From the NCBI RefSeq assembly GCF_964355755.1, contig NC_092674.1, positions 17,980,001 through 18,044,000 on the forward strand: a DNA stretch of 64,000 nt. Reading direction: 5' to 3'. The position numbers and the translations under genes are program-made. This document shows positions 11,202-35,976 of the stretch, in pieces; positions within the stretch are counted from its first letter, which is position 1; each line of letters opens with the position of its first letter. The notes under the pieces were generated by a model, which was not told the DNA's origin, searched no databases, and was given only the letters and a program-made list of their open reading frames with translations. The DNA is from Antedon mediterranea (lineage: Eukaryota > Animalia > Echinodermata).

Positions 11202-11302
11202 CAAAATGGCGGCCATGTTGGATAAAATGGCGGCCATGTTGGATAAAATGGCGGCCATGTTGGATAAAATGGCGGCCATGTTGGATAAAATGGCGACCAT
11301 TT
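11202..11302. repeat. 21-bp tandem repeat (AAAATGGCGGCCATGTTGGAT, about 4.5 copies) in the Academ subterminal arm
   Basis: Directly visible; it produces the spurious NMAAILS-repeat ORF. Confidence 0.85.
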
Positions 11303-13407: not shown

Positions 13408-15586
13408 CTAATAATAAAAATAACACATTATTAACTAGAATTTAATTCGTCACTTTGACAAATTATAGGTGATCATTTTATAAATTTATTGACATTAATA
13501 TTTTTTAAACATGCACGTATGTTAACATACAATCGGAAAATGTTGATGTATACCATAATATTATACGCTTATAGTGCTTATTGTGCCTATTATATGTCAT
13601 ATCACATTATGTACAGTATACTGTATATCTATATACAGTGTATAGTACAGGAAAGATATGCTCAGAATCAGTAAAAGGTTGAAAAAATTGCAACAGAATT
13701 TTTTTCACCACAATGCATTTCTATAAGGTCCCTATATGAACATACTAAAAGTCTAGAAAAATCCAGGTAGGGGAAATAGGTTTTTTTAAACAAAATGGCC
13801 GCTAATGTCTAAAAATGAACAAAAAACATATATTGTATATCTAATTACCACTTGATAGCAGTTTTTATAATGCTTTCTATATTTCTTTAGTGTCAAACAT
13901 TTAAACTGCAATATACATATTAATTTAAGTGCTATTTAGCAGCAAAAACACAAATTTAAGTATCAAGATATCAATCACCACGGTTATAATAATAGACAAC
14001 GTAGTCCTATGCATTATAATGCAGGACTACGGTGTCTAATAAAACAGTTCATTTACAATAGAATTATACAATCTTACAATCTATTAATCCATTCATTTTC
14101 ATTGTCCAGTTATCATCCTCTGTCTATAGGTAGGAATTAAGCATGTGCTGATGATGCCGTGGTATTCGTCACAAACAGTGGTAACTGGTGGTAATTTTGT
14201 CATCAATGGACACATCACGCCATTTGTAACTTTCCATCCCCCAGTCTGTGGGTTGAAGAGTGATTTCTATCCACTGCTGTACCATGGTAATATACACGCA
14301 GGGAATGACATTTTGCAGCATTTGTTGTTGGGGGGAATAGACTTTATTTCAAGTGCTGTTTTGCTTTTTGCTACTTTCTCCCAGAACGTATTCCTCCATA
14401 GCGCTACCAATGCCAATTCCTCTGAAGCGATGGAATCTTTTTTTTGAAGACGTTTGGTTTTACAGAGTTTGTAAGCATACTACTGCCCAGGTGTTATGAC
14501 TTTTTAAGATTAACACCTTTTTTTTTACCAAATAGATGGGATGTAGCATCACATCCCTGGATTACATGTATAAAAAGCAAATTAATTTTTACAGAGCTTC
14601 ACACCAAGGAAAGACTTTACATGCATTCACAGTGCTCCCCCATCGAGAACATACAGTATTAAATCAATGAATGAAGCAACCGTGACAGAATATTAATTTA
14701 AGAGGAAAGAACATATATTATTACACATGGGTCAAAATCAACTATTTTTATCAATAGAGAAGCAGTGCACATTCCCTCACATATACTATTTCATCATTGA
14801 TGGCTATGTGAGACAGTCATACACAATGCATCATTTGTTCAAAAAGAACCTTGTACTTTTCCTGCAGCCCTCTTTTACTCCATCGACTCCATACACACTG
14901 CTAGACTACTCAGAAACATTCATCTCACTGCCCACTGTATGTTATCAATGGGGGAGCACTGCTACATCAAACCTCTTGGCCCGAAACACCAACATTTCAA
15001 GACATTTATTATGTACCATGTATGTTTGTTACGTTATGTGAAGGCAAAGTAAACTCTTGTGTTTTTATATAATTATGGGCCGTAAGTAAATTTGGTTTAG
15101 GAAAAGCTGGAAAATCATCACAGTTGGAGTTGTATGTCAAATTTTGTAAACCAAACAGTTTCCAAAAAAAAGAAAACATTGCATCAGGAATTTGGCATTG
15201 GTAGCTCTATATGGAGGGAAGTCAATGGAGACTTTAGACAGCCTACTTTTCTTTGAGAAAGTTGCAAAAAGCAAATCTATTCCCTTGCTGCAAAATGTTA
15301 TTTCGTGAGTCTTTATTACCAGGTATAGCAGTGGATAGGAAATACTCTTCAACCCACAGACTAGGGATGGAAAGTATTGATGACAAATTTACTACCAGCA
15401 CCAGAGAAACTATTAAAGTTGATTAGATGTACCTGTAAATAAGGTTGTAGTTAAATGAATTGCAGTTGCAGAAAATATAGGTTGGACTGCTGCTCCACTA
15501 TTTTTTAAGAATGCCACGGCATCAGCACATGCTCAATTCCCCACCAATAGATGGAGGATGAGATACTGACAAGATGAAAGTGAAAT

Positions 15587-15971
15587 TACCGCATTTATTT
15601 GAATAAATGCCCTTGGTGGTTGGGGTAGTGGGGGCGTGTAATCGTCGTGAGGAGTTTATTCGGAGAGGCGTTTATTTTTGTGGGTGTAATGTGGTAACAT
15701 GTATTAATCAAATAAATACACCCTTTAGATATGAACAAATACAACACCATCATGTCATTCAGTGAATTCTATTACAAATAGAGATGTGTTAAAACACAAT
15801 ATTATGTATAATATGAATGTGGCGAGTCGTACATTCGACGAAATAAATTCAAAATGATGTCCGATGGGGGCAGGGGAGGGGGTGCGCTGGTGTAGGTTAT
15901 TCAAAATGATGTCTTATGGGGGAGTTTATTCGATTTTTCTAAATGTAGCATTTATCCGAATAAATACGGTA
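15587..15971. mobile_element. Tc1/mariner (pogo-like) MITE
   Basis: Inverted ends TACCGCATTTATTTGAATAAATGC and GCATTTATCCGAATAAATACGGTA, with TA at both borders. Confidence 0.6.
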
Positions 15972-15988
15972 ATAGATTGATTGTAGTC

Positions 15989-16313
15989 CAGTGATGGCGC
16001 AAGGATTTTGCTGGGGGGGGGGGGGGGGAGAGCGCAGCTAGCATCAATTGGCTGGGCCATCAATGGGAGCGCACCCAGAAGTTCCAACAATATTATACCA
16101 GTAAAGGGTAGTTTTAGTCACTTTTAAAAATGAAAATCCTTGAAACAGCACTCAATGGGGTATTGTTTTATATTAGGAATTATCATCATATTGTCTACAT
16201 ATACTCCCGAAAATAGCCAATTGGGGAGAGGGGATGGGGGGGCTGGACAGACTCCCTCACCCTTCCCATATGATCTCCCATCCCTATACCCCTCCCCACT
16301 GGTACCACCAATG
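15989..16313. mobile_element. Putative hAT MITE
   Basis: Imperfect TIRs CAGTGATGGCGCAAGG / CTGGTACCACCAATG. Flanks ttgtagtc and ttgtaata may be a degenerate 8-bp TSD. Confidence 0.4.
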
Positions 16314-16341
16314 TTGTAATATATTGTTATAACAGTACAAA

Positions 16342-17996
16342 CAGGGCCGTAGCCAGGATCTGTCAAGGGGGGGTTCGCACACTAAGTATTTGGGTCACCC
16401 CACCCCCATACCGTGGACTATTTAAAATGAGTCATATGGCCGAGCGGTTAAGGCAGGGGCGCCGTTTACCGTACCTAAAGAGCCAACAACATCGGCAATG
16501 GTTCGAGGCCGACTCGCTCCTAGTTCTGGTGGTGGAACAAGTCTTCTCGGATAAGGACTATAAACCGTAGGTCCAGTGTACACAGTTATAACCTGTGTGT
16601 ACTTTAAAGAACCCAGTTCATTATTCGAAAAAGAGTAGGGGGTTACCCCGGTGAACTGGTTTACACAATATCCCCTGTATCAGGGGGATTACCACCTATC
16701 TGATAGGACAGTGATTAATTCACTATTGGTAATCCTTGGCCACATTGCCTAAAGACATAAAATAAAATAAATAAATAAAAACATTTGTTGCCGTATGTTA
16801 GATGCGCGTGCTCTGTGCGGAACCGCCGATTGTTTGATCATTTACTCGATATTTTGTTTTGCGTTCAAGTTCAATGCGAACGTACGTCTAGGAGAAGCCC
16901 CGAAAAAAGCACACTGGATGAAGGCAAATGCAATTCTTATTATAGCTCTATCTATAATATTTATTTACAGCAATTTGTTGAGGAAATTAAATATGCCAAT
17001 GTAAATAGGTGATATTGATACATTTGAGTACGTATCGGCGAAGCAAATTTTGTTAAATGACACCCCTAGATGGCCGGAAAAGACACTCTCATGCAGCATG
17101 CTACCAATGAGCAAAACGATCGTACTTGGACTCGTGGACTATTTAAACGATAACATTTGTTGCCGTATGTTAGATGCGCGTGCTCTGTGCGGAACCGCCG
17201 ATTGTTAGATCATTTTACTCGATATTTTGTTTTGCGTTCAAGTTCAATGCGAACGTACGTCTAGGAGAAGCCCCGAAAAAAGCACACTGGGTGAAGGAAA
17301 ATGCAATTCTTATTATAGCTCTATCTATAATATTTATTTACAGCAATTTGTTGAGGAAATTAAATATGCCAATGTAAATAGGTGATATTGATACATTTGA
17401 GTACGTATCGGCTGGTGGTCTAGAAAAAAATAATCGGATGCCATAATGTGAACTACAGTACATGATACCATAGATATTATAGTGTAAAATATTAATATTC
17501 ACTATAATCCTCTACTTCATAGCCACACATAAATACTGATGTATGTCGGAAGGCTATATACTTTATGCATGCTGCCTGACTGCCAGTGATCTAAACAATT
17601 GGTACGCAGTTGTCTGGCGGTGTCCTTTGTACGAATCGTTCGTCCCCCAGCTCGCTGTGAGACGCGTCAATATCATGTTGAATGCAGGGACCAAACATTT
17701 ATTTTTCAGGTTAAAATCGGCAATTCATTTGCAACTCTTAGAAATTTACAGACTATATCGCTCGAAGTACGCTCATACAGGGAAGAAGGTACTGTATGAG
17801 TTATTCCGAACGAGTTTACGAATTTTTTAATTTACGAACAACTTTTTGTACTGTGGGGCACGTATTTGGACGATTTTCGGAGATGAGGGTGAGGTATTGG
17901 GCATGTCGGGGATGGGGGTTCGCAGTCGGTTAAGGGGGGTTCGCTGTAAAGGGGGGTTCGCCCGAACCATAAAAACCCCCCCTGGCTACGGGCCTG
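16342..17996. mobile_element. hAT-like non-autonomous element with internal ~370-bp tandem duplication
   Basis: TIRs CAGGGCCGTAGCCAGG / CCTGGCTACGGGCCTG, with ACAAA on both flanks. 16781-17040 is nearly identical to 17153-17411. Confidence 0.65.
16429..16780 (+). mobile_element. tRNA-derived SINE with Deu/Nin-type central domain
   Basis: A box TGGCCGAGCGG and B box GGTTCGAGGCC. Core GGATAAGGACTATAAACCGTAGGTCC..TAAAGAACCC..TTCGAAAAAGAGTAGGGG resembles the DeuSINE domain. (TAAAA)n tail. Absent from the second copy of the host tandem duplication. Confidence 0.75.
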
Positions 17997-19533
17997 ACAA
18001 ATGTAAACTGATTTATTATTAGACACCGTAATCCTATGCATTAAGCATAGGAAGGACTGCGTTTTATATATTATTATAACAATAGGGATATATCTAGATA
18101 CTTAAACATTTGTTTTGCGGCCATTTTCTAATTAACAGCACTTAAAATAATGTGTATATTGTAGTTCAGATCTTCAAAACTGTAAAGAAATATAAAAATC
18201 ATTGTAAAAACCGCTATAAAGTGGATTATTAAATTGAATTAGATCTACTATTTATGTTTTTTTGTCCTTTTTTAGGCATTTTCGACATTGGCGGCCATTT
18301 TGGTTAAAAAAACCTATTTCCCCTACCTGGATTTTTCTAGACTTTTAATATGTTCATATAGGGACCTTATAGAAATGCACTGTGGTGAAATAAATTCTGT
18401 TGCAATTTTTTCAACCATATTTCATAGTTTTCCTGTACTAGTAGCATTGGTGAAATTACAGACACACATCATGTTCTAAGTTTTCGGCACTGATGAAAAT
18501 ATAAAAATAAACTTGTGGATAACAATATCGAAAGATAATGAATTGAGCAATAAAATATAACATTTGGAAGAAAATTTGGCACGTAGAAGCGCGGTGCGCG
18601 CTCTTTAAAATTTGTAAAACTTTGTCGAAAGAGACGAAAAAACTATTTTTTAACTTCAACTGGCCAAATGATAACTTCACAACATTCGATAGGCATAATT
18701 TTTATATGAATTCATATCTACATTTCACCAGCTCTCATAATAAGTTATAAACATCAAGGTCAACTTTAATTCAGAAGAGCTGTAAGGTATTCAAATATAC
18801 TTTGTAGGTGAAATTACGTAACCACCGTTATTAAAATTTTAAGACATGATGACGTCATCAAAATGAAAATATTGGAAACTCAAGAGGAGTTTTCCATTTG
18901 CAATAAATGCCAAATCAATTAACATGTGTATCCAGTCCATAAAATCCAGTAATAAGGAACTTGGCTAAGAGATTAAAAGAAAGCATATTACAATGTAATA
19001 ATAAGATGATCCCTGGAATCTCTCGGCTTTGTATATGTTGTGTTGTGTTGCTGCAAATCAGTTAGTAAGAATGTGGCTACCAAGGCCACCAGTGAATTCC
19101 CTGACATTTTCCCCTCGTCTGAAATATTCAGTTTTTACCACCCACCCCAATCCCCCAGCACAACTAGTATTTTATATTAATTATATTTAAAGCATCTTTG
19201 CCTCATCTGTTTTGAACCTCTTGCTCAAACTTGACACCGATTACAGGTCCGCAGCAATTACACAGATTTTACACATGCGTCAAAAGTTGGTCATGGTATA
19301 CGATTTGTAGTCAGTACTGTACTTTTACCGTTATCTGGCCAGTTTGCCTAATCCCAATTTGCCACGTTGAGCAAACTGGGATTCGGCAAAAAGCTAGTGT
19401 ATGTGGAATAACTTTATCAAATATAAATACGATCTGCAGTTTTGTACTGATGAGATGACACTTTCCAACTTTTCCTAGTGTCGCTTCTAGTTTAATTCTA
19501 ATTTAGTATTCTGTATAATTCACAAAAACTTAC

Positions 19534-20020
19534 CATTTAATATATCGGATATTTGGCACAAAAAGGTAGGTTCCTGCTTCTTATGCTTCAGAATATGTTT
19601 CTGCATTTCAAGAAAACTTGGTGTGTAGTTAAATGGAATAACAGTTTTAGAACATTGATCAATATTCTGAAAGACTCCAAAAAACTCTTTATCATATTCA
19701 TCTTTATCATATTGCAATGTGTGCATATCAACACTCTTTGCTTGAAATGTATGTACAGTTTGTTGGTCATTAATTAACTCACTTCCATCAGTAAACAAAT
19801 TTGTTTTGGATTTATTACCATGAATAAATTCTTGCGATCCAATCGCAGTATATTCTGAAGTAGAGTAATCAAACTTGCAGTGGCTTTGGATGGTAAAATC
19901 ACTCTTAATTTCACTTGTGAGTTTAATTAATTGTTCTCCTTTCCAAAGCCCAATGTCTTCTTTCCCATTTGGATATGTTAAAATGCCTGGGCCTTCTCTT
20001 TCATCTTCTTTATAAAGGCC
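19534..20020 (-). CDS. ANKMY1: ANKMY1-like gene, exon C (last MORN repeat and linker)
   Basis: Bounded by tttcag|GGC and AATG|gtaagt. Begins GLYKEDEREGPGILTYPNGKEDIGLWKGEQLIKL, resembling the recalled ANKMY1 pattern GLYK.D.R.GPG..TYP.G..D.GLW..EQLIKL. 487 bp, ends in phase 1. Confidence 0.88.
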
Positions 20021-21935
20021 CTGAAATAAATTTAAACTGAATATTCTTATATTGAGATATGCATTATTTTACAGAATACATGTATTGCTTGCTTACAGCT
20101 GTAATATAACCTTTGAAATACTCTGTGGTATGTAAGTATATTTTCTCAAGAGAAAACATAAAAATTATAATTTCCAAAGAGGATCTCAAATTTTATAACA
20201 TGGCAAGGCAATATTTGTTATCATATAGCCAAAATCATTACCAGTCTAAGCCTGGCTAACCGTTAGCTTTTAGTACCCCGGCTAGCCCGGTAGTAGTTAT
20301 GTCTTTTTAATTAGGCTGACCATGAGTAATCATTTTACCGTGATATATTAGGTGCAATCACTACCACCGAAAGGCTATTCACTATGCATCAGTAAACACA
20401 AGAAATTTGAGAATGCCTCTTTCTCTCAGTGATTAGATTGTTATTGAGCGCGAAATTTAGTAGATGAGTGATCGGCTATTCCATTTTCCGCGGGCATTAC
20501 AATATACTTATACCATTCCTTCTGTGTGAATTGTTATATTCCACTTTTAATAAAAAATGTACAATACACCAGAATAAGAAATCTCGCCAGTCCAGGCCAG
20601 TGTTATATAGCAACGTAAAATCCAAACGTTTAAATCGGAAAGCAATGAATATTTGTCTCACCCACGTTTGGAATATGTATGTCATGTGACCAACCACCAG
20701 GCTATCCAACCAATCATGGTATAATCTGCAGGGTAGGTATAGTATTGCTTTAATAGTAAGGCAGCTCTTAATATTGTACCATTCTCAAACACTTCACAAT
20801 CGGAATTATTATTATTATTATCGAATTATTTTCTATCATTTCAAAGTTAAAGATAATAATGTAGGCGCGGTTTATATAATCTTAATCAATCCATTAGTTT
20901 AAACATGGCACTGCAACACACTGGGCATCTTAGATGGCCAATAGATAATATCCCTTGCATCGAAAGGAATGGTGTTGTGTACCTAGAAGTTAGGGAATCG
21001 TTTCAATTCCTTGGAATATGGCGTAGAAAAAAAAAGTATGGGTACGGACAAATTGATAAATTTCTGAATGAGAACGGAATTGTTGTGAGAAATGAAATAC
21101 TGACCAGCAATACTGGCAAAAGAACACATATAAGCATTTCTATATTTTTGTCGATACTGTTTAGCGGTTCGTGTTTGACCGACAGTGATTTAAAAAAACA
21201 AATCTATACAGACATTCAAGAACATACACTAAAAATATTTGAGTTACGAGACTTTCTCCTATTAAAAGCCACTACCGCAGTAAACCAAAGGGTTGTTATT
21301 GACGAAGATGACCCTATTATTATTAATCAAAACACAAGGCAAAAAAAGTCCACTTCCAATCTAGTAAGTGCCCTGGACCGAGCACCTGGAGAGAATGGGT
21401 ATTTGCAACCCAGAAGTCCATCCCAAAGGCAATCTGTGTGGCGTTTGAATCGTCGAATCGATACGCAGCGAACTGCCTTAAAGAAACTTGCTTCCGATGT
21501 TCATGGGGGCTCAAAGCAAGACCTACTTCAGGGACTGGTTTGGTATGTATCATAACATATTTAAATTCAAATAATAAATTCGTTAGTCGTCGCAGTAAGA
21601 CGCCTCTAATAATAATATATTTACTAAATTAAGTTCATACCGGTAATAAGCAAAAGTTAAAATTTCTAACATAGCAGTATAATTTGCATAATTGAGTACG
21701 AACAAACCTAAATAATAATTCAACTCATATAAATTAATTATAGGGAGTTATCACGACCGGTGCTTGACAACGAGCCTGACGATTGGAATGGTCGTCTCCG
21801 TGCAGATGATCTTGTGTGGGTGTTAAAACAGACTAAGTCATCGTATAACAAAGATCCGTCACTTTTTGATGAGATAGTCAGGTAAAATACAAAATAGTTT
21901 ATTTTAATAAGATGTAAATTCTTAAGTAATATACT

Positions 21936-23426
21936 ATGTTTTATTCCATGAACGCAGTCGTTCCAATAATAACGGAAATCATTAACCATTCTCTTAATAC
22001 CGGCATAGTGCCAGATGAACTGAAAATTGCTCACGTTCGTCCTTTAATAAAAAAGCAAAACTTGGATCATAACACGCTGAAAAATTACCGCCCGGTGTCG
22101 AATCTTTCTTTTCTTGGAAAGACTCTGGAGCGTGTAGTGACATCACGCATTACTCCATATCTTCAAAAGCATAATTTAAATGAGAATTACCAGTCGGCAT
22201 ATCGTGCATGTCATAGCACGGAGAGTTCCCTTTTAAAGGTACAGAATGATTTGTTACAAGGAATGAATGATGGGAAAATAACGCTATTGGTGTTGTTGGA
22301 TTTGTCAGCAGCGTTTGATACAGTTGATCACCAAAGACTGATAACCCGTCTGAGAAATCGCATTGGCATAAATGGTGTTGCTCTTAACTGGTTCCAGTCA
22401 TATCTTACAGGAAGACGTCAGCTAGTCTGTATCAATGATGCATTCTCAGATGAAGCTTGCCTGGAATATGGTGTACCACAGGGGTCAGTAATTGGGCCTG
22501 GCCAGTTTTCCATTTATACGCTTCCCCTTGGTGACATTATTCGCAAACACAGTCTACATTTCCATTTCTATGCAGATGATACACAGATTTATGTGTCAGT
22601 AAATCCAGTACAAAGGGATGTTGCTGCAGCAATCAGTAAGATGGAAGCCTGTATAGAAGATGTTCGCAATTGGATGACAACAAATTACCTAAAGTTGAAT
22701 GATGGAAAGACAGAGTTTATTATCGTCGGGTCTAAATGTAACATCTCCAAAATCAACATCACGCATATCAGAATCGGAAACTCTAACATCGCTCCCTCAT
22801 CGGTGGTCCGGAATCTGGGAATCATGCTGGATAGTAATCTCACTATGGAAGCACAAATAACAACTGTATCCAAAGCAGCATGCATATCGATTAGGAACCT
22901 TGGTCGTATTCGCGGTAATCTTAACAAGAAAACAGCTGAATTGATTGTACACTCATTTGTCACTTCTAAAATTGACATTGGTAATGCCTTGTTGTTTGGC
23001 ATACCAAAATCTCAAATACAACGTTTGCAGCGCTTGCAAAATATGGCAGCTAGAATTGTAACTTATACAAAATCAAACGCTCACATAACTCCTGTCCTGA
23101 TGGATTTGCATTGGTTGCCTGTTCAACAACGTATTAAGTACAAACTTGCGTTGTTTGTATTCAAGATCCTAAATGACAGTGCTCCTGCTTATTTATCTGA
23201 CCTTGTGGATCGTTACGAATCATCCCGCAGAGGCCTACGATCATTGTCACAAAACCTTCTTCAAGAGCGTAGAGCGAAAAATCAGTGGGGTCAGAGATCT
23301 TTTTACGTTGCGGCCGCAAGTGTATGGAACAGCTTACCAGCAACAGTTAAATGCTCAACTAGTCTAAACAGTTTCAAGACCAACCTAAAGACGTCGCTAT
23401 TCGCTGATGTTCTCGCACGTTGTTAA
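21936..23426 (+). CDS. L2 reverse transcriptase, C-terminal part of ORF2, uninterrupted
   Basis: NYRPVSNLSF, QSAYR..HSTES, LDLSAAFDTVDH, GVPQGSVIGP, YADDTQ, HITPVLMDLHWLP. The N-terminal Met probably derives from flanking DNA. Confidence 0.88.
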   Translation: MFYSMNAVVPIITEIINHSLNTGIVPDELKIAHVRPLIKKQNLDHNTLKNYRPVSNLSFLGKTLERVVTSRITPYLQKHNLNENYQSAYRACHSTESSLLKVQNDLLQGMNDGKITLLVLLDLSAAFDTVDHQRLITRLRNRIGINGVALNWFQSYLTGRRQLVCINDAFSDEACLEYGVPQGSVIGPGQFSIYTLPLGDIIRKHSLHFHFYADDTQIYVSVNPVQRDVAAAISKMEACIEDVRNWMTTNYLKLNDGKTEFIIVGSKCNISKINITHIRIGNSNIAPSSVVRNLGIMLDSNLTMEAQITTVSKAACISIRNLGRIRGNLNKKTAELIVHSFVTSKIDIGNALLFGIPKSQIQRLQRLQNMAARIVTYTKSNAHITPVLMDLHWLPVQQRIKYKLALFVFKILNDSAPAYLSDLVDRYESSRRGLRSLSQNLLQERRAKNQWGQRSFYVAAASVWNSLPATVKCSTSLNSFKTNLKTSLFADVLARC

Positions 23427-23504
23427 TGCACAAAGCGCCATGAGCGCCACATGGGTGGAGGATACCGGCGCTATATAAGTTTTCATTTATTATTATTATT
23501 ATTA
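21948..23504 (+). mobile_element. 5'-truncated L2-clade LINE
   Basis: Open RT frame, an L2-type 3' end (GCGCC..GGCGCTATATAAG) and a (TTA)n tail. TATTCC occurs at both borders. Confidence 0.88.
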
Positions 23505-26221
23505 TATTCCGCAATGTCTATATACCCTGCCTATATGCAACTCCTTGATTTATTCCAAAGGCGATCGACCGAGTGCATCCGGAACGTATCTTTGATATTA
23601 AGCTGGAAAATATGGGGATATGCATTGATCATGCGATCACCAGAACTATGGAGTATGAGCTCGAGAAGTTGGTTAATGAAGTTCACCAGTAAGTATTCAT
23701 TCTTTACTTGATCCATGGATAACATATTGTTTCAAACTATTATTTTGCTGCAATTAGGCTATGTAAAACAACAGGGAATTGTAAAATAAGAAATACAATA
23801 CTGTTGAGGGATACAACTGGTTTGGGAACTGTAATATCAAAGAACAGTACCTTGATAACACATTGTTAATACTGTTAAGTGTTGTAAACCAAATCGACAA
23901 CTGTTTTTTGTTGTATTTATAGGACAACTTCGTTAATTGCTGGAAGAGAGGGCGTCCGATTTCGTTCTGCAAGATAAAGAAGGTTCGAAGCCAACATTAA
24001 AGCCCGAGGTGTACATCATGACAAAGACGGCGGATTCCACATCCGCTTTGATGAAAATGATAAGCTTCAAACAATTTCTTTGAACAAGTCGTCAGCCCAG
24101 CTAATTCTGTACCCTGCCAACAAGACCTTTTTTGCATATGAAAATGATTGTCCATTTACAGATATTTTTGACGGAGTTCTGCCGGACGAACATTTTCAAA
24201 ACAACTTGCCCGACGATTTGCAAATTTTGTTAAACTTGTCAACGTCAACTATCACTTACAAAAGAGTGCATCAATTAATATTTTACCATCTGGCTATGAT
24301 GTATAAAATTCTACGACAATGCCCACGTACAGCGCGAGATGAAAATCTTGTTGAAAGCATTAATGAAGACGATTATGAGTGGGGCCTCAGCAATGACACC
24401 ATCAAAGAATACACAAGGCACGCCGATTTATTTCATCGTCTTCAGGTGTTCCGGTTCGGCAATAAGTTTTCTCCGTATGTTAATCGATGTGGTACCAATT
24501 TTGCTGAAATCGCTTCCGTTTCACAGTTTGATGCCTTTGTCGACTGAAGGGGGTGAACGTTCACATTATGTCGACATGTGTCATTTTTATCAGCACACGA
24601 TGCGTGGTGGTGGAAAGGGAAAGGAAGATCCAATACTGAAACTATTTCAGTGGCAGTGGAGAAAACTTATATCAGAATGTTTGGACACCGTACAGGAACG
24701 TTTCACTAAATTGGTAAACGACTCGGTAGCAGAGAACGATGAAACAGATAATAATTTAGATGAAACAATAGGCCCGAATGACGTGGAAATACACGATTTC
24801 ACCAACCAACAATTAGATAGTGAAGAAGCAGCTCAACAATCATCGATGTGTGTTCTTAGTTGGAAAACAATCGTTCTTGCTGGTACGCTTTACAAGTCGC
24901 AGAAGAAAATAGCTTCAACGAAACTTATTACGAAATTCGGGGGAACACTCTGGTCTATATCAAAGTCGACTTTGCCATCCCCATACATTCCACATCATAA
25001 CCTAATCGTTGTGTCAACACAAAAAGAGTGCGACAAGGCCCATGGAAAAGTCCCTACTTTGCTTGCGGAGGCAGCACGACGCAGGGTTACAATTGTCAGC
25101 GATAACTTTTTGAAAGATATTGAGAACGGATGTATCGGAACACGGTCTCATAAGGATTACCTCCTTGATACATCGACATTAGAAAATGCACCAACAATGA
25201 CTTTGCAGAGTTTACCACAGGATACTACACTTCAACAATATAGAAGGTACGTCAGGCTTCTTTTATAGTAAACAAACTAAATAATTATTTAATATTTTTT
25301 GTATGAGCCGACATACGCGTTAAAGTAGCAAAATCGTTTAATGCACATTACAGTACGTGTTATGTTTAATGTGATATCTAACCACCGGTGATCTAACACG
25401 ATAAACAAACCAAAACTACAATGGTTCGAAATACATAACACTGGGCCCATTAAAGATAACATTTAAATAATAATATATAACAAATTTACTAATATGTATT
25501 GTTAAATTTACAGTAAAATGCCAAGTGCATACACAATGCTGAAAAGAAAGGAGCGCATGGAAAGATTACCCCTTCAGATTATTCAACAAATAACTGATAC
25601 ACCTAAACGAAAGCATAACGCAACACTCAACAAGAACAAAAGAAGACGAACAAGTGGATGGAATTTGTTTAGGCAATCAGGCGGAAGGGTAAATCTAGCT
25701 CTATAATACTTATATTGTATTAATAGGCCTACATTAAAAGAAACGGTATAGATAATAATAATATAATGTTCTTTTGCAAACTTGTGGATAAATATCTATA
25801 ATGTTTTGCGTTTAAAGTTGATATATACTGTATCCGTGTCGCAGTACAGTAAGTAACTTCCAATGCGCATTACAGTACCTAGTTTTAATTGTATTCGGTG
25901 TGTAAACGCATTTTAATTCATTTTTTAAGGTTCAAGTTCAAGATGAAAATACACCTATCATAGCACAGAATCGCTTGACTAGTCAAAATCGAAGACACGT
26001 TGAAAGATGGAATAATCTGACAAGGGACGAGAAGGAAGTGTGGAATACCAGAGCGCGTCTACTTAATGACAACAGACCGTAGGTAAAACAGTTATTGAAG
26101 ATGAAATAATTAAACTAAATTGGTAACAGAAACAAAAAACGCAAACTCCTGTATTTATTTATAAAAATATTAATATTTTACTATACGGTATTCACTCAAT
26201 ATTTAATTACCTAATTTAAAT

Positions 26222-27395
26222 AGTGTTCTATCCAATTGAAGTGTGCTATCCAATTGAAGTAGTGTGCTATTCATTTGGAATGATGTGCTACCCAATTGAA
26301 ATAGTGTGCTATCCATTTGGAATGATGTGCTACCCAATTGAAATAGTGTGTTATCCATTTGGAATGATGTGCTACCCAATTGAAATAGTGTGCTATCCAT
26401 TTGGAATGATGTGCTACCCAATTGAAATAGTGTGCTATCCATTTAGAATGATGTGCTACCCAATTGAAATAGTGTGCTCTCCATTTGGAATGATGTGCTA
26501 CCCAATTGAAATAGTGTGCTCTCCATTTGGAATGATGTGCTACCCAATTGAAATAGTGTGCTATCCATTTGGAATGATGTGCTATCCAATTGAAATAGTG
26601 TGCTATCCATTTGGAATGATGTGCTACCCAATTGAAATAGTGTGCTATCCATTTGGAATGATGTGCTACCCAATTGAAATAGTGTGCTATCCATTTGGAA
26701 TGATGTGCTCCCCAATTGAAATAGTGTGCTATCCATTTGGAATGATGTGCTACCCAATTGAAATAGTGTGCTATCCATTTGGAATGATGTGCTACCCAAT
26801 TGAAATAGTGTGCTATCCATTTGGAATGATGTGCTCCCCAATTGAAATAGTGTGCTATCCATTTGGAATGATGTGCTACGGTACCCAATTGAAATGGTGT
26901 GCTATCCAATTAAAGTGTGCTATCCAATTGAAATAGTGTGCTATCCAATTGAAGTGTGCTATCCAATTGAAATAGTGTGCTATCCGTTTGGAATGATGTG
27001 CTACCCAATTGAAATAGTGTGCTATCCATTTGGAATGATGTGCTACCCAATTGAAATAGTGTGCTATCCATTTGGAATGATGTGCTACCCAATTGAAATA
27101 GTGTGCTATCCATTTGGAATGATGTGCTACCCAATTGAAATAGTGTGCTATCCATTTGGAATGATGTGCTACCCAATTGAAATAGTGTGCTATCCATTTG
27201 GAACGATGTGCTACCCAATTGAAATAGTGTGCTATCCATTTGGAATGATGTGCTACCCAATTGAAATAGTGTACTATCCATTTGGAATGATGTGCTACCC
27301 AATTGAAATAGTGTGCTATCAATTTGGAATGATGTGCTATCCAATTGAAGTAGTTTGCTATCCGTTTGGAATGACGTGTGCTTTCCAATTGAAAT
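26222..27395. repeat. Higher-order tandem array: 42-bp unit made of two related 21-mers
   Basis: CCAATTGAAATAGTGTGCTAT + CCATTTGGAATGATGTGCTAC, roughly 25 units, with an irregular block at ~26880-26970. Confidence 0.95.
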
Positions 27396-29402
27396 TTGTG
27401 ATATCAGGGAGTTGTAATGATTATACATTTGGAATGAAAAAAAATGTGTTTTATTTGCATATTAAAATAACTTTTATTACTGTTTTGTTAGCTAACATTT
27501 AAGATTATTTGCATTCTTGGTGCTGTATATTTGTTTCTCTCTGTTGTTTAGACCTAGTTACTTTATAACGTATTCGCCATTGTAACTCAACAAGCACTCT
27601 TAATTATCCAGACTACTGTCCATTTTAGTTTTGATTACTTACTACCAAACATAATAACTTCATACAATTATTATTATGAAGATAACAAATGTTTACATGG
27701 TATCGTTGGAATTATCACTTTTTAAGCATCGTGATATAATATAAACATAATAACAACTATGATTTATTATTTTTAATTCAAGAATAAACTTTCTGTAGAT
27801 TAGTTCATTTCAAAGGTAAACTAGTTACATTATTCATGGTTGGAAGAAGTTTTATTACTGTATTTTATGTTTTTTAACCATTGGCTTATGGTTGAACAAC
27901 CTATGGTGCAACTTTACAAATTAAATATTGTTATTATTAGTACTGTGTCTATTGTAATATTTTTGTTTATAATGTATAGTCCTATACATATTAACACGAA
28001 ACGCACCATAAACATTTATTGAAAATAATCTTAATTAATAATCAAAAACTAAATTAATACGGCGCTTAGTGAAAGCGGTAAGCGTATTACAATGAATGAA
28101 GTATCGACTGGACTTAATATTGCTGCGCATAATACCCCTTTGTTTACAGGAAGGGTCTGTAATCTACATCAACAGCGTTATCAGTTGATTATGTAATCAA
28201 AGCAGTGGTGCCGAGGGTTTAACATTAATACATTAGAAATTATTAGAGAGAAAAGCTCCTAATGTATAAACATGCGAATTAATAGCCGTCATCACTACTG
28301 CGCGTGTTTTAGCAAATTATAAAGGGTATGAAAACCGCATTAAATATGTTTTAAAATTAACAATTAAAACAACATTGTATCGTAACCTACTATGCTATAG
28401 GCATACGAAAATTTGTTTTATCAAGAGTAAAAGCATTTATACTTTTACAGGATTTTGCAGAAGTGACAAATGTCGTGACCAGCAAAGCGTAAAAAACAAA
28501 ATAACATACTGTTTAAATCCAAGGAGTTTTCGAACACCCATGTTAATAAAGTGTATGGATACCGTACAGGCCTACACTTAAACAACAAGTGTTAGATTAA
28601 ATTAGTTTCAACGCGATATTTGTAATAAAAAATGTATAGGCCTAAGCCTAATTTTTCTGAAATATTTTTTTAACACCCATCAATAGTTAAATAGTATGCA
28701 CTTCATTTTAAAGTCGAAAGAACCAAGTCACCGACTAGCATGTTTACGATTGGATGTACTGCTACATTATTCCCAACCAAGACCCGCCTCAGTTGTCAAT
28801 CTTAAATATTTTACGACGTACCCCAAGGATAAGATAAGTAAAAACAAACAAGGTTCTGCCTTAAGCACCAAACCTTAAAGCTAACGGTTAGCCAGGCTTC
28901 GACTGGTAATGTGTTGGTGCGGTCTGTAGGCTTTAGGCAAGAATGACTATAGAAATGCTAATTGATTATTCATTGGCTTTCCAATATTCACTCAGAAAAT
29001 TTTGTAAGCAATCAAAGTAGCCATGTGATGTAATTTCGACCAATCACGTTTTGCTATTTATGCTATACTATGTAAGAAACATCATAAAGATGAAGGAAAT
29101 GCTGAAGTTGCTATTTATGCTATACTATGTAAGAAACATCATAAAGATGAAGGAAATGCTGATGTTGAAGTTCTACACGGCTATGAGAAGGAACTCCATG
29201 GGAAGTAATTGCGCATGCGTCAACCAGTAGTTTACACTTCGTGCAAAAGACAAGACGAACAGAAAGATACAGTAGTGTCTCAAAAACAATCCGAAAATTG
29301 ACCAAAGTTTAGTTCTTTCATCTGTCACGTGAGTGTATAAATAAAGTATATTTACTCTAGAGTACTGTAGTAATTCTATTAAGGATGGGAGCTAATATTG
29401 AT

Positions 29403-30123
29403 TGTTAGTGCCACTTTGACCCTTTAAGTCAAAGGTCAATAGTACAAAGAATCTTTAAAGTATCTAATTTCATCTACATCTCATATGCTAACTGAGAAAC
29501 TTCATGGATAGACAAACCTTTAATAGTGGACAAAATCATCAAATTTAAGATAGCACAACGTCTTGTAAGTACCCATAGTGTTATGAGTTATAAGTTTATA
29601 TTTAGTAGTTTAGTTTGAAATAGTTTGTAGGATGATAATACTTTTACATGATTTGAAATAGGCAAATATTAATGTTACTGTATCTAGTATATAGGCTACT
29701 GTTTTACATTGCTACACAACCTTGAGTGCATAGCCTGCTGTAACAACCTTGAGTGCATAGCCTGCTGTAATAAGATATACCAAGGGAATCTTTGTTTTAG
29801 ATCTGTGGTCAAGTATTTGTATGCTATCTATAGTACCACAGTATTCACATTTTATATGAAATTATATAATGCTTTGATTTAATAGTATAATTTGTAGTTT
29901 GATGTTACTATAGCTTACTACAGTAGATAATTATAGATAGTTTATTATAAACATTTGTAGTTACACGTTTTTTATATCCTTTGTTTGTAGTCAATCGTGA
30001 TACTTTATGGGATTTGGAATCTGATTATATTGAGGAACAGAATAAACTTAAATCACGCATTGAAACCGTTGGCTTTATATTGTATGGTGTATTTTGAAGT
30101 TTGTTTAAATATTGGAGCCAACA
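29403..30123 (+). repeat. BEL 5' LTR
   Basis: TGTTAGTGCC..GGAGCCAACA; matches 35977-36697 with no difference seen by eye. Confidence 0.95.
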
Positions 30124-30185
30124 TCATTGAAAGACGATACAATTTTGAACTTATCCAACTTATCGAAAGTTAATCATAGGACGCG

Positions 30186-33100
30186 ATGGACTATGGAAGG
30201 CCCGCAGTTGGCGAAGGTCAGCAATATAACAGCATGTTCTCTGAAAATGCAACCTCGCATGTAGCTATGGAGCTACAAAGTATGGGCGGCCAAGAAAACC
30301 AAAATCAGAACCCATGGAGTATAAATAATAGAATTCATAGTATGAGAAAGGAGACGGATGTCCATCCCGAAGATAGCATATCGCAGACAGGATCACGAGT
30401 AAGTCGTGTGTCAGCAGCATCGAGCAATCGAGTGAAAGAGTCAGCAAATTTAGCCGGACTTTTAGCAAAACAGGAGGCACTCAAAAGAAAACGCGAACTG
30501 CAACAAAAGGCATTAGCCCTACAATTGGAAATGGAAGAACTTGCGTTAAAAACTCAGATTGAGATCTCTAGTGCTCGGGAACGAATTTATACAGAAGCAG
30601 AGATCGCCGAAATTAAAGAATTAGAAAATGAATGCGGGATCGGCGAAACAAATGTAAATACAGACGGTTATGAACAACCAGATAATGAACAGTTGCAGAA
30701 CGTGCCAGTGATGTTACCCCAAGTGAGTAACAACAATAATAATCATCAAGGAAACATTCCGGACGAGAGAATATATACTCATGATATTGTTAATGGACCT
30801 CCTGAGTTTCAACACCCTGTAGGGACAAACCCATATGCACCAACATATGCACCAATATATGCACCAACATATGATCCACTACCACATCAAGCTCTATACG
30901 AGATCATCAATCAGATGACTGCATCTCAGCAAACGCAACAGCAACTAACCCAGTTAATAGTTGATCAGCAACAAAGAAATCTCTTGCCACCTACCAATAT
31001 CCCCAAGTTCAAAGGTAATCTGGTAGAGTTTCGGTCCTTTGTGAAGGCCTTTGAGAGTAGGGTTTCTACCCGTACTCAGCGCACAAGTGAGAAATTGCAT
31101 TACCTAGAACAATATACAATGGGAGATGCAAACTCCCTAGTTCGAAGCTGTATGCACCTAGACGCCGAAACTGGGTACAAAGAGGCTTGGCGTTTATTAA
31201 AGGAGAAATACGGAAATGAGTATAAAATTACTCAGGAATACATTGAGCAACTTACAAACTGGAACATCATCAAACCAGATGACGTTGAAGGACTGGAAAA
31301 GTTTTCAATATATTTAACCACATGTAAAAATGCAATGGATGATTTAAAATCAATGAGGGAAATGGAGCACCCCAAGAATCTGCAAACCATCGTGAGAAAG
31401 CTCCCATATTACATTCAAGACAGATGGAGTCGAAAATCGCTTGAGATACGAGACAAACATAACCAAATAACCTTCGCAAATCTCGTCAACTTTATCACAC
31501 AAGAGGTTAGAGTGGCTACTGATCCGGTTTTCGGAAGACAGACAAAACGAGATAAAGTAAAACCTGAAACAAAACCAGATCGAAAACACACACAATCCTT
31601 TGCCGTTGATGTGAAGGAAACAGCAGGGCGACGACCGATAAGTGCTCATTGCAATCCTTGCTTGTTCTGCAAAGGTGATCATACCATGGAATTTTGCCGT
31701 GCCTTGCAGAAGAAAACTCACAGTGAAAAGATAGCTTTCCTTATGTCTATGGGTCTCTGTTTTAAGTGCCTGATACCCGGCCATAGAAGCAGTGATTGCA
31801 AAAGAAAGATTGTATGCGAAACGTGCAATAAGGAACATGCAACTATCCTACATCGTGAAGAAAACCCACAAACCACTCAATCCATCTCCGAAAAGGATGC
31901 CTCTGTTGCTCACGAGCCAAATTCAACTCAAACTGGTCAACAGCCAAACAGAGTGGCCAATGGAGCCATAGGGGCCGGCAGCAACCTGCGAAGCTGCATG
32001 GCTATCATACCTGTACTGGTACGGGCAAACACATCTGGAAAGACCATTAAGACATATGCATTTTTGGATAATGGAAGCTCAGCTACATTTTGTACTGAGA
32101 GTCTTATGGAGCAGCTGAGCGCAGAAAAAAGACAAACTCGGTTAATACTCTCGACTATAAATCACAGGGATCAGCCAGTTAATAGTCACATTGTATCATC
32201 GCTGGAAGTTAGCAACCTCGTGGGTGGTACTCCTATAAAGTTACCAAGGTTGTACACCGTAAAGGAGATTCCAGTAACAAAGGAAGAAATACCCTTGCAG
32301 AAAGATATTAGAACCTGGCCATATTTACAAGACCTTAAGATCCCAGAATTGGACGCTGAAATTGGACTTCTTATAGGAAATGATGTTCCGAAAGCGATGG
32401 AACCCTGGGAAGTGATAAATAGTCAAGGTGATGGTCCTTACGCAACCAAAACCCGCCTTGGCTGGGCTATAAACGGACCAATAAGACGTTCAGAACTGAC
32501 AAACGACGAACGTGTCAATCGCATTGCTGTGAAGTCAAATCTTGAAGAGCAATTTCAAATCTATGCCAATCAAGATTTCAACGAACGAAGCTACGGAGAG
32601 AAATTGTCCCACTCACGAGAAGACAAAGAGTTTATGCGTAAGGTAGATGGCAGTGCTTCCTTGATCGATGGTCATTATCAAATTGGTTTGCCTCTGAAGG
32701 ACCACGTTCTTATGCCGAATAACCGAGCTCAAGCACAACAACGAGCAAGTCAGCTCAAGAGAAAATTTGATAAGTCCCAAACCTTTTATGAAGACTATAA
32801 ACGTTTTATAACCAAAGTTATTGAAGCTGGTTATGCAGAAAGAGTGAAGGACAATATTATCCGTAACGATGGTATGGTGTGGTATCTACCACATCATGGG
32901 ATCTACCACCCAAATAAACCTGGAAAAATACGCGTAGTGTTTGACTGCGCTGCCCGTTATCATGGTACTTCGCTCAACGATCAACTACTGCAAGGACCAG
33001 ACCTAACCAATTCTTTAGTAGGTGTACTCCTGAGGTTCCGTGAAGAGCAAGTCGCTATTACTGGTGACATAGAGTCTATGTTCCACCAAGTTAGAGTGCC

Positions 33101-35888
33101 GAATGAGCATAGAGATTTATTAAGATTCCTGTGGTGGACAAATGGAGATCTTACTAAAGAACCGGAGGAGTACAGAATGGCTGTTCATTTGTTCGGGGCA
33201 AAATCATCACCAAGTTGTGCCAATTACGCTCTGCTGAAGACGGCCAAAGACAACATGGTTGACGCTGAAGTAGCAGAGTCTGTAGAGAAAAACTTCTACG
33301 TTGACGACTACCTCAAATCAGTTGCTACAGAAGAAAAAGCGATTGCTATGATAAAGGAAGTGCGATCACTTTGCGCTCAAGGGGGGTTCAATATTACCAA
33401 GTGGAGCAGCAACCGACGTAATGTCATATCATCGATACCTGAAACAGATCGTGCCAAGGAATTAAGTGGTCTCGACTTAGACCGAGATGCCCTTCCGATA
33501 GAACGTGTACTCGGAGTTCACTGGATGATAGACACGGACAGTTTCAGCTTTAAGGTAGCTGCCAGAGAAAAACCTGTATCCAGACGAGGAATACTGTCAA
33601 GCGTTTCTTCTGTATATGACCCTCTTGGCTTCGCGGCACCATTCGTCCTTCCTGCAAAAAACTTGTTGCAGGATCTATGCAGACTGAATCTTGGATGGGA
33701 TGAAGAGATACCAACGTCTATTAGGGACCGCTGGTCGGTATGGAAAAGTGACCTTGCGAAACTTGAAAAGCTTTCGGTTTATCGTTGTTACAAGCCAACC
33801 AACTTTGGAATGGTAAAACATTCACAAATTCACCATTTCGCAGATGCCAGCGAAGGAGGTTATGGTTCTGTTGCCTACCTTCGGTCAGTTAACCAATCTG
33901 GTGATATTCATTGCAGTTTCCTAATGGGTAAAGCAAGAGTAACCCCTTTGAAGAATGTTACAATTCCCAGACTTGAATTGAATGCTGCCACAGTAGCTGT
34001 AAGACTTGATGCACTTCTAAAAGAAGAATTACAAATTGAAGTTGAGCCAAGCGTCTTTTGGACAGATAGTACTGCGGTCCTCGGTTACATAAACAATACC
34101 ACAGCTAGATATCAAACATTTGTAGCTAATCGTCTTGCTACCATTCATGAACGATCAGTACCATCACAATGGAAATATGTACCTACCGACTTGAATCCGG
34201 CTGATGATGCCTCCAGAGGTCAGACCGCTGAGGAATTCTTAAATTCTAAACGATGGATTAATGGGCCAGATTTCCTGTGGACCATTGAAGAAAATTGGCC
34301 AAAAGACAGAGTTTTGCTTGAACTAAAGGATAATGATCCAGAGGTGAAGACACCAATCTTAGCGAATGTTATTCTAACAAAAGAAGCAGAAGGTACCATT
34401 AATCAACTAATTAACACATTTTCCGACTGGACCAAGTTAACGAAAGCTGTTGCTTGGTTGCTAAGATGTAAACGAGTCCTACACGCAAAGATAAAGAACG
34501 AAACAGCAAGAGCTGTTCTTGAGCCTCTAGATTTAGCCGAAATCGAGGAGGCTGAAAAGGAAGTGTTAATATTTGTTCAAAGAAGTGCGTTTAAAGAAGA
34601 GATTGAGCATTTAAACACTAATGCGACCAAACCAATAAAGAGAAAGAGCCCAATAACCAAGTTAGACCCGAAATTATCCGACGGGCTACTAAGAGTCGGA
34701 GGGAGGTTATGTAGAGCTAGCATGCCAGAAGAAAGCAAGCAGCCCATCATCCTACCAAACAAATCACACGTGTCTGAAATAATCATTCGCCATTTGCATG
34801 CCGTAGTAGGACACAGTGGTAGAAATCACGTCATTTCGAAACTGCGACAGAAATATTGGGTCATCAATGCAAACTCAGCCGTTCGCAAAATTATAAGTAA
34901 ATGTGTTATCTGCCGGAAATTACGAGGTAAAACATGTGAACAAAAGATGGCTGACTTACCAGTCGATCGCATCACACCCGATGAACCTCCGTTTACTCGA
35001 GTCGGCACAGATTACTTTGGACCCTTTGAGGTTAAACGGGGACGATCCTTAGAGAAGCGCTACGGTGTTATCTTCACATGTCTGGCAACTCGCGCTATAC
35101 ACATCGAAGTGGCACATTCTATGGACACTGACTCTTGCATCAACGCTCTCCGTAGATTTGTTGCAAGAAGAGGTCAAGTGAAACAAATTCGTTCCGACAA
35201 TGGCACCAACTTCGTCGGAGCTAACAAGTGCTTAAAGGAAGCTATAGCTGAATGGAACCAAAACAAAATTCACAATGCAATGCTGCAAAGGTGTATAAAT
35301 TGGTCATTTAACGCCCCAGGAGCTTCACACCACGGCGGAATATGGGAACGACTGATTCGCTCCATAAGAAACATCCTATCTTCACTGCTGAAGGAGCAGA
35401 ACATTAATGATGAATGTTTGCATACTTATTTGTGTGAAGTAGAGGCTATTATAAATAGCAGACCATTAACATCCGTCTCAGGTGAACATAATGATCTGGA
35501 ACCTCTCACGCCAAATCATCTACTCCTACTTAACAAGAAAACAAGTTTACCTCCAGGAATATTCGAAAAGAACGACATCTATGCTCGTCGCCGTTGGAAG
35601 CAAGCTCAGTACATGGCAGACGTGTTTTGGAGAAGATGGCTGAAAGAGTATTTGCCAGCCTTACAAGAGAGACAGAAATGGATGAGATCAAAGAGAAATG
35701 TTGAACCTGGTGATGTCGTACTTGTAGTCGACAATGCAGCACCTAGGAATGTATGGCTATTAGGAAAGATAACGAAAGTTAAACCAGACAGCAACGGAGT
35801 AGTTAGAATCGTTGAAGTACAGACAAAGAATTCTGTATTGGAACGTCCAATATCGAAATTAGTAATTTTATTGGAAAATGATAACTAG
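30186..35888 (+). CDS. BEL/Pao Gag-Pol polyprotein
   Basis: Three Cys/His knuckles (CLFCKGDH, CFKCLIPGH, CETCNKEH), protease FLDNGS, RT RVVFDCAA..FYVDD, RNase H FADAS/FWTDS, integrase HAVVGH..CVIC, DYFGP and SDNGTNF. Confidence 0.97.
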   Translation: MDYGRPAVGEGQQYNSMFSENATSHVAMELQSMGGQENQNQNPWSINNRIHSMRKETDVHPEDSISQTGSRVSRVSAASSNRVKESANLAGLLAKQEALKRKRELQQKALALQLEMEELALKTQIEISSARERIYTEAEIAEIKELENECGIGETNVNTDGYEQPDNEQLQNVPVMLPQVSNNNNNHQGNIPDERIYTHDIVNGPPEFQHPVGTNPYAPTYAPIYAPTYDPLPHQALYEIINQMTASQQTQQQLTQLIVDQQQRNLLPPTNIPKFKGNLVEFRSFVKAFESRVSTRTQRTSEKLHYLEQYTMGDANSLVRSCMHLDAETGYKEAWRLLKEKYGNEYKITQEYIEQLTNWNIIKPDDVEGLEKFSIYLTTCKNAMDDLKSMREMEHPKNLQTIVRKLPYYIQDRWSRKSLEIRDKHNQITFANLVNFITQEVRVATDPVFGRQTKRDKVKPETKPDRKHTQSFAVDVKETAGRRPISAHCNPCLFCKGDHTMEFCRALQKKTHSEKIAFLMSMGLCFKCLIPGHRSSDCKRKIVCETCNKEHATILHREENPQTTQSISEKDASVAHEPNSTQTGQQPNRVANGAIGAGSNLRSCMAIIPVLVRANTSGKTIKTYAFLDNGSSATFCTESLMEQLSAEKRQTRLILSTINHRDQPVNSHIVSSLEVSNLVGGTPIKLPRLYTVKEIPVTKEEIPLQKDIRTWPYLQDLKIPELDAEIGLLIGNDVPKAMEPWEVINSQGDGPYATKTRLGWAINGPIRRSELTNDERVNRIAVKSNLEEQFQIYANQDFNERSYGEKLSHSREDKEFMRKVDGSASLIDGHYQIGLPLKDHVLMPNNRAQAQQRASQLKRKFDKSQTFYEDYKRFITKVIEAGYAERVKDNIIRNDGMVWYLPHHGIYHPNKPGKIRVVFDCAARYHGTSLNDQLLQGPDLTNSLVGVLLRFREEQVAITGDIESMFHQVRVPNEHRDLLRFLWWTNGDLTKEPEEYRMAVHLFGAKSSPSCANYALLKTAKDNMVDAEVAESVEKNFYVDDYLKSVATEEKAIAMIKEVRSLCAQGGFNITKWSSNRRNVISSIPETDRAKELSGLDLDRDALPIERVLGVHWMIDTDSFSFKVAAREKPVSRRGILSSVSSVYDPLGFAAPFVLPAKNLLQDLCRLNLGWDEEIPTSIRDRWSVWKSDLAKLEKLSVYRCYKPTNFGMVKHSQIHHFADASEGGYGSVAYLRSVNQSGDIHCSFLMGKARVTPLKNVTIPRLELNAATVAVRLDALLKEELQIEVEPSVFWTDSTAVLGYINNTTARYQTFVANRLATIHERSVPSQWKYVPTDLNPADDASRGQTAEEFLNSKRWINGPDFLWTIEENWPKDRVLLELKDNDPEVKTPILANVILTKEAEGTINQLINTFSDWTKLTKAVAWLLRCKRVLHAKIKNETARAVLEPLDLAEIEEAEKEVLIFVQRSAFKEEIEHLNTNATKPIKRKSPITKLDPKLSDGLLRVGGRLCRASMPEESKQPIILPNKSHVSEIIIRHLHAVVGHSGRNHVISKLRQKYWVINANSAVRKIISKCVICRKLRGKTCEQKMADLPVDRITPDEPPFTRVGTDYFGPFEVKRGRSLEKRYGVIFTCLATRAIHIEVAHSMDTDSCINALRRFVARRGQVKQIRSDNGTNFVGANKCLKEAIAEWNQNKIHNAMLQRCINWSFNAPGASHHGGIWERLIRSIRNILSSLLKEQNINDECLHTYLCEVEAIINSRPLTSVSGEHNDLEPLTPNHLLLLNKKTSLPPGIFEKNDIYARRRWKQAQYMADVFWRRWLKEYLPALQERQKWMRSKRNVEPGDVVLVVDNAAPRNVWLLGKITKVKPDSNGVVRIVEVQTKNSVLERPISKLVILLENDN

Positions 35889-35976
35889 AAGGAGTTGCAT
35901 TACCATTTAGATTTAGTGTGGCGTTTCGTATTTTAAGCTTTTAGATAATTGTTATTAGACAATTAAGGGGCCGGGA

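Follow-up and report, generated by a model that had tools for sequence, protein, structure and literature searches.

RAG1 assembles antibody genes, and to our knowledge all its relatives (Transib, RAGL and, in a looser sense, the CMC groups) have a zinc site and generate duplications of 2-5 bp. Here we analyse an element at positions 20236-28911 of a 64,000-nucleotide window of the echinoderm Antedon mediterranea (the whole stretch NC_092674.1, 17,980,001 to 18,044,000, assembly GCF_964355755.1), which a sequence-only reading had taken for a transposon with a RAG1/Transib-like transposase fused to BRCT and HMG domains. The best overall explanation, which we consider likely, is that it is a dead copy of a family of terminal inverted repeat (TIR) transposons that have a RAG1 fold, carry BRCT and HMG domains in the same protein, and insert without target-site duplication.

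RAGL and Transib have the zinc ligands ZnC2 and ZnH2 and CAC ends (PMC7204232), and the motifs C(2)C and H(3-4)H, located between the second catalytic Asp and the Glu, are listed for RAG1 and all groups of the CMCT clade (PMC12730594), one of which, Lanisha, is a moss group (PMC8245031). The length of Transib target-site duplications varies (5, 3 or 2 bp), which weakens duplication as a criterion, and the accessible text of the same preprint contains no Transib duplication of zero length (bioRxiv 10.64898/2026.08.26.747230).

Results

The element is bounded by a left TIR at 20236-20273 (forward strand), which starts CATTAC, and a right TIR at 28874-28911 (reverse strand), which terminates GTAATG; the left end is also supported by a contig breakpoint. 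The 38-nt arms are 95% complementary and 34 of their first 35 bases are identical, as in the ~35-bp pair with one mismatch that had been proposed; when 200 sequences were simulated with a similar dinucleotide composition, the best inverted match was 26/36, against 34 in the real region. No target-site duplication of 2-12 bp was found at these ends, where a single base matches. In run X6, which is labelled as another organism, one contig tracks the left flank over 536 bases, from which it differs at 3; its match ends at 20235, although the contig continues for another 1,300 bases, and a second contig starts exactly at 20236. By this breakpoint the element would begin with the C of CATTAC, which speaks against a TA or AT duplication hidden within the repeat, as far as the left-flank contig was read, up to 20235.

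Relatives were collected by successive searches that gave 2, 29, 387 (150 of which were listed) and 86 matches, and 21 related loci came from one scan of metagenome contigs. Locus L008 is a complete element of 9,279 bp with a 33-bp TIR (97%) and CATTAC..GTAATG ends, and its transposase is 38% identical to that of the window copy; family members that are 32-38% identical share these 5'-CATTAC..GTAATG-3' termini. L009 agrees with L008 at 99.8% identity across 7.7 kb yet has a different right flank, the left end of L015 matches the L008 TIR at 22 of 30 positions, and L005 has CATTAC from its second base, so that CATTAC ends were seen in these four loci and in the window. Single occurrences of CATTAC or GTAATG in L001 and L006 are at chance level (p ~3e-4 per site) and were rejected as ends. 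Direct repeats of 2-12 bp are absent from the ends of both complete elements, the window copy and L008 (0/2), and L008 lacks even a matching base. The insertion flanks differ (AAAT|TGTT and AAAA|CTTT), and a hunt for empty sites found no match between the flanks of the window copy, L008, L009 or L015 and any other fetched locus. The TIRs, the multiple loci, the near-identical copies with other flanks and the X6 contig break at 20236 together confirm that this is a transposon.

Intact relatives, for which the sequence-only reading had proposed a search, are common in marine invertebrates; L005, with an unbroken frame of 2,101 residues, P0016 and P0020 each consist of a single frame, and proteins of the family are ~900-2,100 residues long. 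Named hosts are the crinoid Anneissia japonica (protein P0046), the hemichordate Glandiceps talaboti and the sea cucumber Holothuria leucospilota, the last accounting for 13 of the 86 matches at distinct loci. In quick IQ-TREE runs without an outgroup, the window protein is nested within the family as the sister of P0046 (55% over 286 columns). The top Atlas clusters comprise eukaryotic proteins, most commonly from Cnidaria, and no relatives of the transposase were found in viral contigs. The loci L013 and L003, both broken, have none of the GT-AG introns found in L008, L009 and L015, which suggests that relatives are transcribed and spliced. Between L003 and L009, the nonsynonymous divergence of core exons is 0.11-0.14 versus a synonymous divergence of 1.1-1.6 (three exons with measurable synonymous divergence, six compared).

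Six coding segments of the window, all on the forward strand, match the closest database protein, P0046, in the expected order (E 7e-52 to 5e-7), which bears out the six-exon gene proposed earlier. Exon 1 (20905-21542) encodes an N-terminal domain of ~80 residues, for which a weak structural lead suggests a winged-helix-like form, and the beginning of a helical pre-core region; exon 2 (21744-21881; P0046 residues 207-249, E 5e-7) encodes the pre-core helices; and segment 3 (23552-23688) is an exon remnant with a C(2)H motif (CIDH). Exon 4 (23923-25246) contains a helical insertion domain, the catalytic Glu (STEGGE), an acidic linker and the BRCT domain, exon 5 (25514-25688; P0046 934-987, E 4e-10) a basic linker and the first helix of an HMG-box-like domain, and exon 6 (25930-26082; PF00505, E 0.09) the rest of that domain and the stop codon. 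The motifs CIDHAITR (23621), FSPY (24467), LIDVVP (24480) and STEGGERSH (24540) all lie where they had been described.

The copy is dead and lacks its catalytic middle, as had been noticed. In exon 4 the reading frame is interrupted by a stop codon (23975-23977) and shifts near 24479, and ~219 codons upstream of the exon 3 remnant, including both catalytic Asp codons, are gone: residues 250-468 of P0046 have no match anywhere in the window, and on the family profile of 985 positions the copy covers 47-166 and 390-954, leaving 167-389 uncovered. Of the DDE triad the copy keeps only the Glu. No active enzyme can come from it, and it would be mobile in trans only. The splice phases were said to fit, and they do at introns 1, 3, 4 and 5, but not between exon 2 and segment 3, where a phase 2 donor faces a nearest acceptor of phase 0 and the two do not join because the deletion sits there.

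Catalytic and zinc-binding residues were counted in 135 fetched proteins longer than 380 residues, 78 of which span the core. The residues D, D, H and E are kept in 76 of the 78, and C or D stands three residues ahead of the His position in every one. None of the 78 has C(2)C in the interval from the second Asp to the His motif, and H(3-4)H occurs in two; a CxxC further downstream is found in eight, seven of them near-identical. The invariant Asp of a PYMxKxxD motif is a candidate occupant of the zinc site. The segment before the catalytic Glu that corresponds to the histidine motif of RAG1 contains no histidines in this family, which by motif is therefore not Transib, RAGL or CMCT. Pfam scans found no transposase or RAG1 family in any relative scanned, and no transposase, RAG1 or BRCT family in the exon pieces of the window. 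The claim of a RAG1/Transib-like transposase thus holds for the predicted fold but not for the histidine and zinc motifs.

The fold was modelled for the relative P0002 from a 60-sequence alignment (mean pLDDT, the predicted local distance difference test, 88) and, as the sequence-only reading had expected of a structural comparison, the best fit is to RAG1. Foldseek returned 47 Protein Data Bank matches at E<=0.001, and all of those among the matches listed are RAG1, HzTransib or BbRAGL. A VIA comparison gave Z 21.4 for RAG1 (root-mean-square deviation 4.1, 406 residues aligned), 19.2 for HzTransib in its hairpin-forming complex, 18.7 for BbRAGL and 13.2 for the P element. A search of 48,161 chains, independent of Foldseek, gave RAG1 20.2, BbRAGL 18.7, P element 13.6, apo HzTransib 13.1 and Hermes 7.9. 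Structures of the IS5/Harbinger type were not among the top structural matches listed, although such lists cannot exclude likeness. The core is predicted to fold like RAG1.

Fusion of BRCT and HMG domains with this transposase in one chain, as claimed in the earlier note, is borne out. The window BRCT domain scores 38.8 bits against the family profile, versus 5.3 for the best of 500 shuffles, and BRCT exceeds the Pfam cut-off in many relatives; BRCT domains match residues 641-745 of the model at Z up to 12.4 in the 48,161-chain search. The nearest sequence matches are ligase IV, Mdb1, PARP1 and RFC1, all too weak to choose among. Evidence for the HMG box is firm in some relatives but weak in the window copy, where an HMG-box-like domain occupies the same place; HMG is above the Pfam cut-off in 4 of 27 closer relatives, and the family profile matches NHP6A (E 2e-6) and HMGB1 (E 7e-6). 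Sub-profiles that we built from the family, and which are partly circular, detect BRCT in 65 and HMG in 53 of the 78 core-spanning proteins. Several relatives also share an IQ-like motif between the catalytic Glu and BRCT (PF00612, E at best 7e-5).

The N-terminal domain is modelled at pLDDT 80 and has no Foldseek match at E<=0.001; its best structural match, Dachshund/Ski at Z 6.2, is below the tool's reliable level. Longer family members have one to four added copies of it, and an N-terminal SCAxD-type motif is present in 20 of the 78 core-spanning proteins. The N-termini of P0043, P0047, P0056 and L005 contain a cysteine-protease-like region with weak Pfam matches, and P0043 also has a ubiquitin domain (E 8e-9). 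A putative deubiquitinase-like module at the front of long members, absent from the window copy, is a lead only.

Two subfamilies carry a second gene. In L008 (7862-9124, reverse strand), as in L009, it is a convergent 421-residue frame inside the TIRs, and in L006 (3452-4870, forward strand), which by its transposase belongs to the subclade of the window copy, it is a frame of 473 residues on the same strand as the transposase. The two versions match in two segments (tblastx E 1e-11) and have a Tudor-like N-terminus (Agenet E 0.002 in each, under the cut-off; Polycomblike Tudor E 0.001; PHF20L1 E 0.007) and a common C-terminal region that belongs to no known family. Profile searches gave Tudor-like matches only, and none to kelch. 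No trace of the gene was found in the window, L001, L005 or L015 (the last two with short 3' flanks), the window copy has no second long frame, and no relatives of the gene were found in viral contigs. A complex prediction for the L006 transposase core and second protein, made without alignments, scored 0.00 and gives no indication either way.

Several features of the element were not among the first observations: the absent target-site duplication, a tandem array of 21/42-bp units of 1.2 kb (approximately 26200-27400, without strand), and a 5'-truncated non-LTR (long terminal repeat) retrotransposon in intron 2 (21952-23504, forward strand). The latter has a reverse transcriptase frame to 23426 (RVT_1, PF00078, E 7e-30) and a TTA tail, and TATTCC is present on both sides. 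Its depth in run X1 is ~2,900-6,800 versus 26-54 elsewhere, ~100-fold that of its surroundings; its start is marked by loose contig ends in 4/4 runs, including one contig with a third organism label and no differences in 383 bases. Contigs of X1 break at 21949 and 23552, with an inner depth 1.5-1.9 times that of the flank, which hints at another copy, unlike this one in the region of the deleted core. Run X5 was considered as RNA and rejected, since its coverage extends over introns and flank, as expected of DNA.

The transposon probably lies in an intron of a host gene with MORN repeats, an exon of which (19520-20068, reverse strand; PF02493, E 6e-4) is 170 bp away. On the other side, a BEL/Pao LTR retrotransposon at 29403-36697 has identical LTRs of ~720 bp, a 5-bp TTGAT duplication and an unbroken frame of 1,902 residues with Peptidase_A17, DUF1759, DUF5641, reverse transcriptase and integrase, and is very young. 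The window contains five further long inverted-repeat pairs with arms of 71-897 nt, at 409-6065 (around zinc-knuckle and reverse transcriptase frames), 8611-12289, 13677-18416, 41253-44874 and 57919-62855 (around a 285-residue frame with no Pfam match).

Discussion

Several points weigh against our preferred explanation of a RAG1-fold family that inserts without duplication. The fold was predicted for P0002 and not for the window copy, and its match to RAG1 is only 12% identical. Sequence searches of the Protein Data Bank found no RAG1 (the core profile had no matches at E<=10; one listing comprised the best 60 of 99). There were no CACTA, Chapaev or Mirage structures among the matches, and the family may be close to those groups as well; Atlas also gives a DUF1280 cluster at 0.93-0.94. 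The window HMG box is weak, with Pfam E 0.09 and a score reached by 2/500 and 2/1000 shuffles, and HMG exceeds the Pfam cut-off in none of 27 more distant relatives. The absence of duplication is based on two elements with both ends and on one contig read up to 20235.

It is also conceivable, though unlikely, that the family is a divergent branch of a named CMCT group (Chapaev, Mirage, EnSpm, Plavaka, ESTA, Lanisha or Transib), perhaps one already in Repbase, that has lost its zinc ligands. CA..TG termini are the CMCT norm, with PlavakaB ending CATCA..TGATG (PMC12730594), duplication length is labile within Transib (bioRxiv 10.64898/2026.08.26.747230), and the Atlas neighbours of the family include DUF1280 and Transposase_21 clusters. 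Both motifs listed for all CMCT groups are nonetheless missing, no relative scanned matches a Pfam transposase or RAG1 family, and two of two complete elements lack a duplication. A more improbable reading puts the true ends inside the apparent TIR, with TA duplicated in a strict CATTAATG target or AT in CATG. Both versions fit the letters at all ends seen, and TA duplications are made by the RAG1-like fungal group ESTA (PMC12730594); but with an empty CATG or CATTAATG site the match should have continued to 20238 or 20240, whereas that of the X6 contig stops at 20235, and an exact target of 8 bp (or 4 bp) would be needed at all five loci seen.

There is very little chance that the family should be grouped with the zinc-free C/D(2)H transposases of the P element, hAT and MULE rather than with RAG1/Transib. 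The invariant His preceded at three residues by C or D in 78/78 proteins and the missing zinc motifs would suit such a placement, and among structural matches the P element ranks next (Z 13.6). RAG1, however, scores ~7 Z units higher over ~100 more residues, and Pfam scans found no THAP or BED finger. P element, hAT and MULE duplications are 7-9 bp, and none of that length was found at the two complete elements. That the locus is a decayed host gene between chance inverted repeats, as the introns and low copy number of the window copy in X1 (inner depth 38-49 versus flank 26) might allow, is scarcely credible given TIRs that exceed chance, the same six terminal bases around transposases 32-38% identical, copies with different flanks and 13 loci in one sea cucumber.

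If the family is indeed one of RAG1-fold transposons, a dimer of the transposase would bind the TIRs, with CATTAC serving as a heptamer-like end, while the winged-helix-like N-terminal repeats could bind sub-terminal DNA. The fold suggests excision by a nick and a flank hairpin, the route of RAG and Hermes (PMC6900584). Judging from the flanks, both ends would then be joined at opposite, unstaggered target positions, as has been proposed for Spy (PMC4122938). HMGB1 is added to ProtoRAG reactions (PMC8289069) and is present in RAG structures, so a fused HMG box would plausibly do the same job, supplying in cis the bend that HMGB1 gives to RAG. It is also possible that the HMG box bends the target, as a tighter spacing of insertions demands. 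The single BRCT domain may bind DNA ends or repair proteins. Bending in cis and repair recruitment had both been proposed as possible roles by the sequence-only reading.

A full-text literature search, which did not extend to the Repbase and Dfam libraries, where a name may already exist, found no paper describing a zinc-free RAG1-fold transposase with BRCT and HMG domains, and neither domain appears in the main texts of two 2026 preprints (one of them bioRxiv 10.64898/2026.08.26.747230). New here are the absent zinc motifs, the shared CATTAC..GTAATG ends, the lack of duplication at two complete elements and the Tudor-like second gene. Such elements would escape pipelines that depend on target-site duplications, a possible reason for their appearing only as 'BRCT domain-containing' or uncharacterized proteins. 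The family has a fair chance of superfamily rank. We suggest more tentatively, at slightly less than an even chance, that it is a sister of RAG1/Transib at that rank, zinc-free and duplication-free, with its own HMG and BRCT domains and an independently recruited second gene of Tudor type. Such a lineage would parallel the combination of RAG1, HMGB1 and the RAG2 PHD finger (PMC12337333), a chromatin-reading partner being the proposed counterpart of that finger. It would also provide an outgroup for tracing the origin of RAG1 and a natural test of what fixes the spacing of strand transfer in the RAG1 fold. Since intact single-frame relatives exist, the possible replacement of HMGB1 by a fused HMG box, the role of BRCT in a transpososome and the use of a duplication-free enzyme as a tool for clean insertion are directly testable.

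Of the known systems compared, RAG1 is the best match by predicted fold. The P element shares the D/C(2)H motif and a large helical insertion (Z 13.2-13.6) and has a CA-type end, but it makes an 8-bp duplication, which is not seen here, its structural score is far below that of RAG1, and there is no THAP match. Spy, of the PHIS group, is likewise a TIR element without target-site duplication, but is related to IS5/Harbinger and uses an AAA|TTT target (PMC4122938), in contrast to the RAG1-like core and varied flanks described here. The CMCT clade (EnSpm, Mirage, Chapaev, Plavaka, ESTA and Lanisha) shares 5'-CA..TG-3' termini and a RAG1-like core; here there is neither C(2)C nor H(3-4)H, nor a 2-5 bp duplication at the two complete elements, and the main text of the source on the clade contains no HMG or BRCT (PMC12730594).

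Transib is, like the window copy, a single-gene TIR element, and HzTransib matches the predicted fold (Z 19.2). Proteins of the present family are larger, with extra domains, and lack zinc motifs; the elements lack CAC ends and, at the two complete elements, the 5-bp duplication of Transib (3 or 2 bp in some Drosophila-lineage elements). RAG1 and RAGL (ProtoRAG) resemble the family in predicted fold over RAG1 479-1007 (Z 20-21), in the D..D..(D/C)xxH..ExxE layout, in a TIR beginning CA, in marine-invertebrate hosts and in a second gene, present in two subfamilies and convergent in L008/L009. They differ in having ZnC2/ZnH2 ligands, CAC heptamer-like ends in place of CATTAC, a 5-bp duplication, and a RING or NZD finger, not detected here by Pfam, and in having no fused BRCT and HMG; the partner of RAGL is a convergent RAG2L kelch propeller gene, whereas the second gene here is Tudor-like and absent from the window copy. 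The family works like RAG1/Transib, yet its missing zinc motifs and the lack of duplication at two complete elements set it apart from RAGL, Transib and CMCT.

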